From the NCBI GenBank assembly GCA_045598385.1, contig JAZLLY010000019.1, positions 1,205-65,204 of the forward strand: a stretch of 64,000 nt of DNA, given 5' to 3'. The DNA is from Eubacteriales bacterium. GTDB lineage: Bacteria; Bacillota; Clostridia; Oscillospirales; CAG-272. Position 1 is the first letter of the stretch. Each line of letters starts with the position of its first letter. Positions 16,290 through 58,688 of this stretch are shown here, piece by piece. A program made the position numbers and the translations under genes. A model generated the notes under the pieces. That model did no database searches, was not told the DNA's origin, and worked only from the letters and a program-made list of their open reading frames with translations.

Positions 16290-16745
16290 GCCGCCAACGG
16301 CGGCAACGATGTGTTCCGCAAGCGGAACGTGATGCGCACTCCGTGCGTGATGTACGCCTGCGGCGAGTGATGTGCCGGCGGGCGTGGGTAGGGGTTCCCC
16401 GAAGCGAGCTTGTCGAGTTTTGGGGGTTCCCGTGGATAGGGGTTCCCCGAAGCGAGCTTGCCGAGCTTTGGGGGTTCCCGTGGATAGGGGTTCCCCGAAG
16501 CGAGTTTGCCGAGCTTTGGGGGTTCCCGTGCGTAGAACACATCTCATAACTTTGCGGTGCAACCGCAAACCATAACGGTGAGCAAAGCGAACCTCATAAC
16601 TTCGAGCGTAGCGAGAATCATAACTATGCCGCAGGCAAACCATAACTTTGCGGCAAAGCCGCAAATCATAACTTCGAGCGTAGCGAGAATCATAACTTTG
16701 CCGCAGGCAAACCATAACTTTACGGCATAACCGCAAATCATAACT
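16290..16745 (-). repeat. Hairpin/linker array, full composite with expanded CATAAC units (copy 2, reverse orientation relative to copy 5)
   Basis: GCCGCC-AAC-GGCGGC, AACGATGTGTTCC-GCAAGC-GGAAC, three hairpins linked by GTGATGY, then nine units linked by A(T/C)CATAAC(T). Confidence 0.85.
16390..16533. repeat. 3 x 48-bp tandem repeat nested inside array copy 2
   Basis: AGGGGTTCCCCGAAGCGAGCTTGYCGAGYTTTGGGGGTTCCCGTGGAT at 16390, 16438 and 16486. Each unit can form CCCCGAAGC/GCTTTGGGG. Confidence 0.85.
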
Positions 16746-18870: not shown

Positions 18871-18873
18871 GAA

Positions 18874-19162
18874 ATCCGCGTGAGCGGTATGGAATCCGTC
18901 GCAGACGGCATGGCATCCGCGCGAGCGGAACACATCGTTGAAAAAACAAAATTATAAAGTGATGTTTGCCCTGACGGGCAAGTGATGTTATGGCTACGCC
19001 ATAGTGATGTTTTGCGGTTGCACCGCAAAGTGATGAGATGTGTTCCACACGCCCGCAGGCACATCACTCGCCGCAGGCGTACATCACGCACGGAGTGCGC
19101 ATCACGTTCCGCTTCCGGAACACATCGTTGAAAAAACCACTTGCAAAAGCAAGTGGTTTTTT
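18874..19162 (+). repeat. Hairpin/linker array plus terminator hairpin (copy 3), abutting tRNA-Tyr
   Basis: Four GTGATG linkers (18959, 18982, 19004, 19030), three CATCAC linkers (19061, 19081, 19099), then CCACTTGC-AAAA-GCAAGTGG and T6. Confidence 0.85.
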
Positions 19163-19163
19163 C

Positions 19164-22581: not shown

Positions 22582-22966
22582 GTGAAAAAAGCGCAGACCG
22601 AAAAGGGAAAGAGGGTATTTATCCTTCTTTCCCTATTTTTGTGCCTTTCTTGCGCCAATACCCCTTATCTGAGGTAGAAATCCTTGCGGATTTCCTTTAT
22701 ATTATTTTCCCTTTTCTACCGCCGAAAAGCGCTCTTGCCGTACACTTGTACGGCTCGCGGGCCGCTTTTCGACGCTTCTGCATCTCTTTTCCCTATCTCT
22801 ATTAGTCGGATAAAAACGGTCAGACCGAAAAGGGGAGAGGATATTTGTCCTTTCTCCTTTTTTCATTTTTCTTTCTTGCGCTAATACCCCTTATCTGAGG
22901 TAGAAATCCTTGCGGATTTCTTCTTTGTTTGATCCCCTTTTCTACCGCCGAAAAGCGCTCTTGCCT
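22582..22966 (+). repeat. Two ~226-bp direct repeats, each starting with a terminator cassette (CAGACCGAAAAGG + stem + T-run)
   Basis: CAGACCGAAAAGG at 22594 and 22821. TTCTTGCGCYAATACCCCTTATCTGAGGTAGAAATCCTTGCGGATTTC at 22648 and 22874. TTTTCTACCGCCGAAAAGCGCTCTTGCC at 22712 and 22938. Confidence 0.8.
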
Positions 22967-23153
22967 CGCCGCTCGCGGCGAACGATGCGTTTCACTGCGC
23001 GAAACGTGATGTGCACTTCGTGCGTGATATACACCTATGGCGAGTGATGTGCCTGCGGGCGACGGGGAACGCATCTCATAACTTTGCGGCAAAGCCGCAA
23101 ATCATAACTGTACCGTAGGTATATCATAACTTGCCGAGCGGGCAATCATAACT
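22967..23153 (-). repeat. Hairpin/linker array, diverged copy (copy 4)
   Basis: CGCCG-CTCG-CGGCG, AACGATGCGTTTC-ACTGCGC-GAAAC, GTGATG-linked hairpins, GGAACGCATC, then three ATCATAACT-linked hairpins. Confidence 0.8.
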
Positions 23154-23159
23154 GATATT

Positions 23160-23530
23160 TGTTCTGCGCAAAAAGCGCACATTTTCCCCCATTTTTCTTC
23201 CAAAACCAACCACACACCCATTCTTTTCCGAAAACGGGATGATTTTTGATGCAGATTCGCCGAGCTTCGCCCGAAGGCGTATATTCATACGTCGAGCGGC
23301 GAAGACCGACGAAAAAAGAGCCGGTGAAAGTCCGGCTCTTTGTTCTGCGCAAAAAGCGCACGTTTTCCCGAAAACGGATTGGATTTTGATGCAGATTCGC
23401 CGAGCTTCGCCCGAAGGCGTATATTCATACGTCGAGCGGCGAAGACCGACGAAAAAAGAGCCGGGGAAAGTCCGGCTCTTTGGTCTGCGCAAAAAGCGCG
23501 CGTTTTCAAGCGCAAAAGCGCACGTTTTCA
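23160..23530 (-). repeat. Tandem ~140-bp structured module (2 full copies plus a partial one) 3' of pyk, each ending in an intrinsic terminator on the minus strand
   Basis: TTGATGCAGATTCGCCGAGCTTCGCCCGAAGGCG...AGAGCCGG-loop-CCGGCTCT at 23246 and 23386. TTCTGCGCAAAAAGCGCAC at 23162 and 23343, with a GTCTGCGC variant at 23483. Confidence 0.8.
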
Positions 23531-57068: not shown

Positions 57069-57076
57069 CATGGCTA

Positions 57077-57170
57077 ACAGAGTAGGAACAGGCGCGAACA
57101 GTGTCTGCGGGACGGGGAGTTGTCCGCAGAACGAAAGGGAAACCGCGGTGCCTCTTCCGCATCCCACTGT
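57077..57170 (+). promoter_or_regulatory. THF (tetrahydrofolate) riboswitch
   Basis: ACAGAGUAGGAACAGGCGCG...GGGACGGGGAG...ACGAAAGGGAAACCGCGGUG...CCGCAUCCCACUGU aligns by eye to the folT-motif aptamer (AGAGUAG, CGCG, ACGAA, GCGGUG, GCAUCC). Lies directly upstream of a folT-like gene. Confidence 0.8.
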
Positions 57171-57205
57171 GAAAACAGCAATCTATGGATACACTCTGTC
57201 GGAGA

Positions 57206-58371: not shown

Positions 58372-58687
58372 TATACGCCTGTGGCGTATATCATCCGCGT
58401 AAGTGGATATCATTGTAAAAAACAAAATTATAAAGTGATGTTTGTCCTGACGGGCAAGTTATGGTGCGCGTAAACGCGCAGTTATGATTTGCGCAAGCGC
58501 AAAGTTATGATTCTCGCTCCGCTCGCAGTTATGATTTGCGGTTGCACCGCAAAGTTATGAGATGTGTTCCTACACGCCCGCAGGCACATCACTCGCCGCA
58601 GGCGTACATCACGCACGGAGTGCGCATCACGTTCCGCTTGCGGAACACATCGTTGAAAAAACCACTTGCAAAAGCAAGTGGTTTTTT
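58372..58687 (+). repeat. Hairpin/linker array plus terminator hairpin (copy 5), abutting tRNA-Gln
   Basis: Ten stem-loops separated by AGTGATGT or AGTTATGRT (left half) and ACATCAC or GCATCAC (right half), then CCACTTGC-AAAA-GCAAGTGG and T6. Confidence 0.85.
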
Positions 58688-58688
58688 C

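Follow-up and report, generated by a model that had tools for sequence, protein, structure and literature searches.

Compensatory change in two alternative helices of a modular intergenic element related to Gut-1

The copy of a repeat element at 22967-23153 of the window (the whole 64,000-nucleotide stretch of Eubacteriales DNA that was analysed) contains a first arm, arm A, which can pair with a local partner or with a distal arm, arm C. An initial annotation had proposed these two alternative helices from the copies in the window, and comparison across genomes bore the proposal out. On this comparative evidence, three sets of pairings were shown to be kept by compensatory change: each mini-hairpin, a long-range helix of 10-13 bp, and the complementarity of the left and right linkers. 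Judging from the alignments, the compensatory pattern is genuine, and what it reflects is a constraint on single-strand pairing throughout the family. Our best explanation as a whole, to which we give moderate confidence, is that the stretch carrying the annotated segments represents the 5′ half of one solo copy, by now slightly decayed, of an intergenic element that is modular and belongs to the Gut-1 family. The element would probably be mobile, would adopt competing single-strand folds, more likely in DNA than in RNA, and would provide a predicted protein docking site.

Gut-1 has been an orphan motif since 2010, with a three-hairpin model only and no context, and PF05635 is a protein family without a known role outside retroelement accessory proteins. 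The three-hairpin motif was already known. The long-range helix and the link to a PF05635 gene appear to be new; a literature search on Gut-1 and PF05635 found no paper that links both or describes the helix. Because the conserved long-range helix competes with hairpin 1, and because the link to tRNA ends and to PF05635 is fixed, both Gut-1 and PF05635 become testable by ordinary assays of binding, probing and reporter type.

The diverged copy and its repeat family

The segments read from the window were the first arm GATGCGTTTC at 22984-22993, GAAAC at 23001-23005 and the distal arm GGAACGCATC at 23066-23075, exactly where the initial annotation had placed them. The reference copies contain exact GATGTGTTCC/GGAACACATC pairs (at 16308, 19037/19117 and 58561/58642), and AGAACACATC at 16534-16543 is the distal arm of copy 2. 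Relative to the reference copies, the local hairpin of the 22967-23153 copy has changed from C:G to T:A (GTTCC/GGAAC to GTTTC/GAAAC), and pair 5 of the long-range helix has changed from T:A to C:G. Both double changes had been reported and were confirmed; the remaining difference is a T:G at pair 9. The features of this copy are listed in Table 1.

Table 1. Features of the element copy at 22967-23153 of the window
Feature	Position	Strand	Remark
Leading hairpin P0 (CGCCGC-TCGC-GGCG) and conserved AAC	22967-22983	+	every copy opens with a hairpin, then AAC or AAT
5′ arm A, GATGCGTTTC: first linker GATG and 5′ half of hairpin 1	22984-22993	+	pairs with 23001-23006 (local) or 23066-23075 (distal)
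Local partner B (GAAACG), closes hairpin P1 with 22988-22993	23001-23006	+	equals P1 in the Gut-1 model alignment
Three more linker and mini-hairpin units: GTGATG-GCAC/GTGC, GTGATA-CACC/GGCG, GTGATG-GCC/GGC	23006-23061	+	
Spacer ACGG	23062-23065	+	in other copies holds 1-3 inserted 48-nt units
Distal arm C, GGAACGCATC	23066-23075	+	complements arm A with one T:G pair
3′ array: linker TCATAACT four times, three mini-hairpins	23076-23153	+	loops AAA, GTA, GAGC

The linker of the 3′ array is the inverted type of the GTTATGA/TCATAAC subfamily, and the right array has a different linker type from the left (TCATAAC versus GTGATG). Two changes in this copy are uncompensated: one is the linker GTGATA at 23024-23029 and the other is an A:C mismatch in hairpin 3 (23033/23041), where the sister copies have G:C. 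Because of these two changes, the copy may no longer function. The copy sits between the 3′ ends of convergent genes for an M20 peptidase and pyruvate kinase. We rejected a riboswitch or attenuator, because of this position and because no T-run follows either helix. Just downstream of the copy, a 140-bp unit is present twice with 94% identity (window 23224-23507), and parts of this unit (GATTTTTGATGCAGATTCGCCG...) recur beside element copies in contigs C6, C10, C33 and C42. Upstream, a duplicated module (22590-22700 and 22820-22930) consists of a terminator-like hairpin with GAAATCCTTGCGGATTTC behind it; CCCTTTTCTACCGCCGAAAAGCGCTCTTGCC is a word that is also found ahead of copies in C10 and C43. 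Elsewhere in the window, a THF riboswitch (76 bits) is located at 57076-57171, upstream of a + strand gene.

In the source genome (1.5 Mb, 43 contigs, 53% G+C), motif clustering found about 37 loci of one modular repeat; several are at contig ends and some are nested or duplicated. The diverged copy had been described as an array copy. The bases given for it stand, but the element is a dispersed modular repeat and not a tandem array. On the canonical strand, a copy begins with the leading hairpin, AAC, arm A and the rest of hairpin 1. Three more units of GTGATG and a mini-hairpin, a short spacer and arm C follow, and then 3-12 units joined by TCATAACT or ACATCACT. In the simple form of the element, arm A meets arm C directly over a loop of 3-6 nt, and the whole is a plain 10-bp hairpin. 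There was no orientation bias relative to neighbouring ORFs, as far as a crude ORF calling can tell, and the replication-strand bias by GC skew (17 versus 11) was uninformative. In copy 2, the spacer from hairpin 4 to the distal arm (window 16383-16530) holds three tandem 48-nt units, GGATAGGGGTTCCCCGAAGCGAGCTTGCCGAGCTTTGGGGGTTCCCGTG, and one or two copies of this unit are present in other elements (C8, C15 and C43). A further linker family was seen at window 18873-18940, where CATGGAATCC-type units with CCGC/GCGG hairpins abut a truncated extra arm; arrays of the ATATCATCC type occur elsewhere in the genome (C2, C3 and C38).

The genome contains two arm types, namely the T type (GATGTGTTCC/GGAACACATC) and the C type (GATGCGTT[TC]C/G[GA]AACGCATC). 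In the C-type copy at C13:25411, pair 9 is fully compensated to T:A and there are 12 perfect pairs. Chimeric arms are also present: those with T:G at C16:74727 and at two places in C2, and those with C:A in C11, C17:30793, C6:27229 and C42. Over 14 copies of this genome, 98.6% of the cells of the long-range helix are paired, and two pairs are changed on both sides. The C-type complex copies share other substitutions and form one lineage or subfamily. Because the C-type arms form one subfamily, the two double changes of the 22967-23153 copy represent few independent events; they would have been inherited from the founder of this subfamily and not made in place. The statistical weight for pairing comes from other genomes, not from the C-type changes in this genome.

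Covariation and architecture across genomes

A covariance model built solely from the local hairpins matched 25 of 41 related genomes. The copies in these relatives have quite different arms, each with its own matching complement, for example GATATAAATCC, GAAATAAATCC, TAAGTGTGCC, TAAGTGCGCC, GATGTTTGCC, TATATTCGCC, GAAATTCGTT, TAAATCCACC and TATGATTGCC. From about 40 genomes, 29 distinct arm sequences were collected. In this set, all 10 pairs of the long-range helix are changed on both sides and 95.5% of the cells are paired, a percentage that is somewhat inflated because the register of the distal arm was picked by best complementarity. The covariation score of the helix was 0.914, versus 0.258 ± 0.027 when shuffled and at most 0.163 when the partner was slid. 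In a swap test with the same best-register search, an arm formed 9.0-9.15 of 10 Watson-Crick pairs with its own partner versus about 6.1 with arms of other types, and 0 of 20,000 permutations reached the observed arm-match total; these swap and slide controls answer the register inflation only in part. The initial annotation had suggested such a covariation check on diverged copies, and its view that the structure and not merely the sequence is maintained holds for the family, because both helices covary.

To judge from its bases, arm C is the specific complement of the first linker and half of hairpin 1, not simply a copy of the local partner and linker. At the base that faces the junction T, arm C has an A and the local partner a G, and TAAG-type first linkers face CTTA in arm C, while the generic inverted linker is CTTCAC.

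The layout of the element is also conserved: four units, a central arm, and about four units with the inverted linker. In 105 of 107 elements, the recurring linker of the left array is the exact reverse complement of that of the right array; at least nine linker types occur. Among 100 triloops of the left arrays, read on the canonical strand, TNC occurred 65 times and GNA once; in the right arrays, GNA occurred 34 times and TNC not at all. Because the loops flip from TNC to GNA at the centre, the two arrays consist of the same oriented unit, pointing outward, and either strand reads alike. The loop survey found no TTCG (UUCG) tetraloop; a GNRA tetraloop occurred once in the left arrays and 12 times in the right. 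It is in mini-hairpins of DNA, rather than of RNA, that C-GNA-G triloops are known to be stable. In addition, right-array hairpins of the form GAGC-NNN-GCGA (for example, at 16565-16600 and 16600-16625) would form tandem G:A pairs, and would do so on the canonical strand alone (GGTGAGCAAAGCGAACC, TTCGAGCGTAGCGAGAA).

These results bear on the explanation that pairing is not under selection at all and that complementarity arises by copying at the DNA level, that is, by quasi-palindrome template switching, by conversion of inverted repeats or by inheritance from a few master copies. Template switching that corrects imperfect palindromes is an established source of mutation (Ripley; Lovett) and counts for this explanation. 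Furthermore, the C-type arms, as one subfamily with linked differences elsewhere, need few events, and the chimeric T:G and C:A arms look like exchange between subfamilies. However, the 29 arm types differ at all 10 positions, and they stay paired over distances of 70-230 nt and across bacterial families. The conserved layout also speaks against copying, and the strong bias in loop type is not explained by copying alone. We consider copying without selection very unlikely.

Genomic context of complete elements

Loci with close relatives of the PF05635 protein of the source genome were collected from 80 species of Acutalibacteraceae, Oscillospiraceae and other gut or rumen Clostridia. The upstream flank was complete at 56 loci, and at every one of these the PF05635 gene is directly downstream of the element on the same strand. 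According to a tally of the locus listing, about 44 of these 56 linked loci have a tRNA gene (once the tmRNA gene) directly before the element, and the tRNA identities are many. Counted by element, a co-oriented tRNA gene was found 35-45 nt upstream at 19 of 60 loci in relatives (co-oriented in 19 of 19) and at 6 or more of 28 in the source genome. Among 41 genomes, 22 possess both the element and the PF05635 gene and 11 possess neither; three have the element only and five the gene only. PF05635 is a four-helix-bundle family, Avd/IVS-like. The linker type differs between PF05635 variants. No recombinase or transposase was linked to the element, and the PF05635 gene is the only linked gene.

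At one locus (L096), the array occupies the whole interval from a 19-pair terminator to a sigma-70 promoter that matches at 12 of 12 positions (TTGACA-17-TATAAT). The last linker abuts the -35 box, and the leading hairpin is a terminator when it lies behind a tRNA gene. In the source genome, the intact cassette order is present at C16:218210-218754, with an intact PF05635 gene of 131 aa at C16:218210-218521; its protein carries the motif RxxxSxxxNxxE. A second PF05635 gene (C11:1060-1371), which stands in the cassette order as well, has an in-frame TAA and is probably a pseudogene. The order of tRNA or tmRNA gene, own terminator, opposed linker arrays, promoter and PF05635 gene was not found at the 22967-23153 copy. 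Because this copy is without tRNA, promoter or gene, we regard it as a solo derivative.

An identical 37-nt terminator hairpin is present behind tRNA-Tyr and tRNA-Gln (19127-19163 and 58652-58688), starting right after the CCA end. Because the terminator is identical at both tRNAs, it seems to travel with the element and not to be part of the tRNA gene. At C32:10697-11049 and C7:12067-12169, no more than about eight initial codons of PF05635 (MKENKLAE...) stand behind the element, and then comes a new element copy or unrelated sequence. This cut after about eight codons suggests that the copied unit ends just inside the gene. From the copy number and the different tRNA partners, we infer that the element is mobile. 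No empty site was recovered at the tRNA-Gln locus, where the orthologues of the flanking gene are 33-47% identical and synteny is lost.

The context also bears on the nucleic acid in which the fold would form. The element might be a structured non-coding RNA of the + strand, either a Gut-1 small RNA or a trailer of a tRNA operon, with the two helices as an RNA switch or processing signal. Gut-1 is classed as an RNA, on covariation, by Rfam and by Weinberg et al. 2010 (PMC2864571), and the authors rated it as certainly an RNA (PMC2864571, Table 1). The strict co-orientation with the upstream tRNA fits this possibility. Predicted energies under RNA parameters, which put the long-range state 7.6-13.4 kcal/mol below the local one, fit as well. 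Mismatches in left arrays (9:2) and in the long helix (15:8) lean weakly to G:U on the canonical strand. However, a terminator is directly 5′ and a consensus promoter directly 3′ of the array, which places the array in the gap between transcription units. The left loops are mostly TNC, with the stable GNA form on the other strand, and the lack of UUCG and the GNRA counts given above also argue against RNA. Moreover, the element is repeated about 37-49 times per 1.5 Mb; its copies vary in module number, may be nested and show no orientation bias to neighbouring genes, and C:A mismatches occur besides U:G. Covariation alone does not show RNA, because a DNA element with a single-strand fold should give the same signal. 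In our judgement, the RNA possibility is somewhat unlikely.

The initial annotation had read the U:G wobble of the diverged copy as a hint of an RNA-level fold. This part was not supported. The G:T versus A:C counts (39:27, 9:2 in left arrays, 33:25, and 15:8 in the long helix) are none of them significant alone and give no clear strand bias, and the strand test is confounded because the arrays are inverted. In addition, C:A chimeras are present beside T:G in the genome, and the position of the array between terminator and promoter in complete elements is a poor place for a transcribed RNA. G:T is the most tolerated mismatch in DNA too. Three points, namely the array standing between terminator and promoter, the way the loops are oriented and the repeat-like genomics, lead us to favour, with low confidence, a single-strand fold that is read at the DNA level over RNA.

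The same layout allows another explanation, in which the arms never pair. A protein would bind double-stranded DNA at a site that is present as two inverted copies, comparable to the terminal or subterminal repeats of transposons, and the arms would change together because this one protein has to bind both. The linkers are indeed inverted copies in nearly all elements and differ with the linked protein, and the abutment of the last linker on the -35 box is operator-like. In contrast, the distal arm is internal and not terminal, and it matches the first linker specifically (TAAG/CTTA) rather than a generic site. The simple form is a plain 10-bp hairpin, and the mini-hairpins vary freely yet stay paired, with GNA loops that favour hairpins. 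An unpaired duplex site is unlikely on this evidence. MITEs were also rejected as an identity of the element: the distal arm lies inside the element, with 3-12 more units behind it, and no transposase is linked.

Predicted folds and comparison with known systems

In isolated cores, the minimum-energy fold contains the helix of arm A and arm C whether RNA or DNA parameters are used. RNA parameters favour the closed state over the local state by the margin given above, and with DNA parameters the difference is no more than about 5 kcal/mol. For full elements with perfectly complementary linkers, a ladder is predicted, in which the first left linker pairs with the last right one and the hairpins protrude. 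The minimum-energy folds of whole elements are sometimes closed and sometimes ladder-like, and give no decision between the two forms. These predictions suggest that two global folds compete and that the two helices are what can be seen of them. In the closed one, arm A and arm C would pair and enclose the left array. In the alternative, hairpin 1 would form locally and the linkers would be free to zip into a ladder of four-way junctions. The fold would arise in single-stranded nucleic acid, more likely DNA than RNA, and may be a putative docking or operator site for the PF05635 protein of the cassette itself. As a speculation that we consider distinctly unlikely in its full form, the element might toggle between the closed form and the open ladder, and a multimeric Avd/IVS-like protein might read the units; the cassette would in this way regulate the promoter that it carries, and would need no conventional recombinase to spread to tRNA and tmRNA 3′ ends.

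The relation to Gut-1 (RF01706) was evaluated with the Rfam model. The 22967-23153 copy scored 30.4 bits and the other copies in the window 35.1-38.5 bits, versus a gathering score of 50, and the homologues from relatives that the local-hairpin model had found scored 52.2-78.1 bits. Because the window copies are below 50 bits and the homologues of relatives above, the window copies are divergent relatives of Gut-1 and not members by the rule of Rfam. Nevertheless, the model aligned to them over its full length (1-77) with the hairpins in register and the linker GUGAUG; like Gut-1, they have three successive hairpins with a constant linker of the GUGAAAU type. Both consist of short consecutive hairpins on a constant linker (the heptamer GUGAAAU in the model, GUGAUG here), and both start alike (CAAUGAAAU in the model, AACGAUG here). 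The flanks of the published Gut-1 seed sequences have the same order of tRNA, terminator, array, distal complement and inverted array. In contrast, the Gut-1 model comprises three hairpins and ends inside the fourth, before the long-range helix; the fourth hairpin, the long-range helix, the inverted 3′ array, the leading hairpin and the genomic context are outside it. The text of the Gut-1 paper gives its occurrence as human-gut sequences only (PMC2864571).

The element resembles REP/BIME repeats (RAYT) as a high-copy intergenic mosaic of short GC-rich imperfect palindromes with a conserved flanking word, in both orientations and often near gene ends. However, its units are joined by linkers of 6-8 nt and form two opposed arrays of fixed number, and it has a long-range helix and a preference for tRNA flanks. 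Mobilisation by RAYT/IS200 was rejected: the Y1 transposase (PF01797) was absent from the source genome and, among 41 genomes searched, from 13 other element-bearing ones, and Y1 transposases do not track the element. No reverse transcriptase is near the element. With the intervening sequences of 23S rRNA that carry a PF05635 (S23p) ORF, and with the Avd of diversity-generating retroelements, the element shares a gene of the same small four-helix-bundle family beside a helix-forming insertion at a stable-RNA gene. The 22967-23153 copy differs from these systems in being without any gene. Complete elements differ from rRNA intervening sequences in that they are located behind tRNA or tmRNA genes and not inside rRNA, and from both intervening-sequence and Avd systems in that the hairpin array stands upstream of the PF05635 gene's own promoter.
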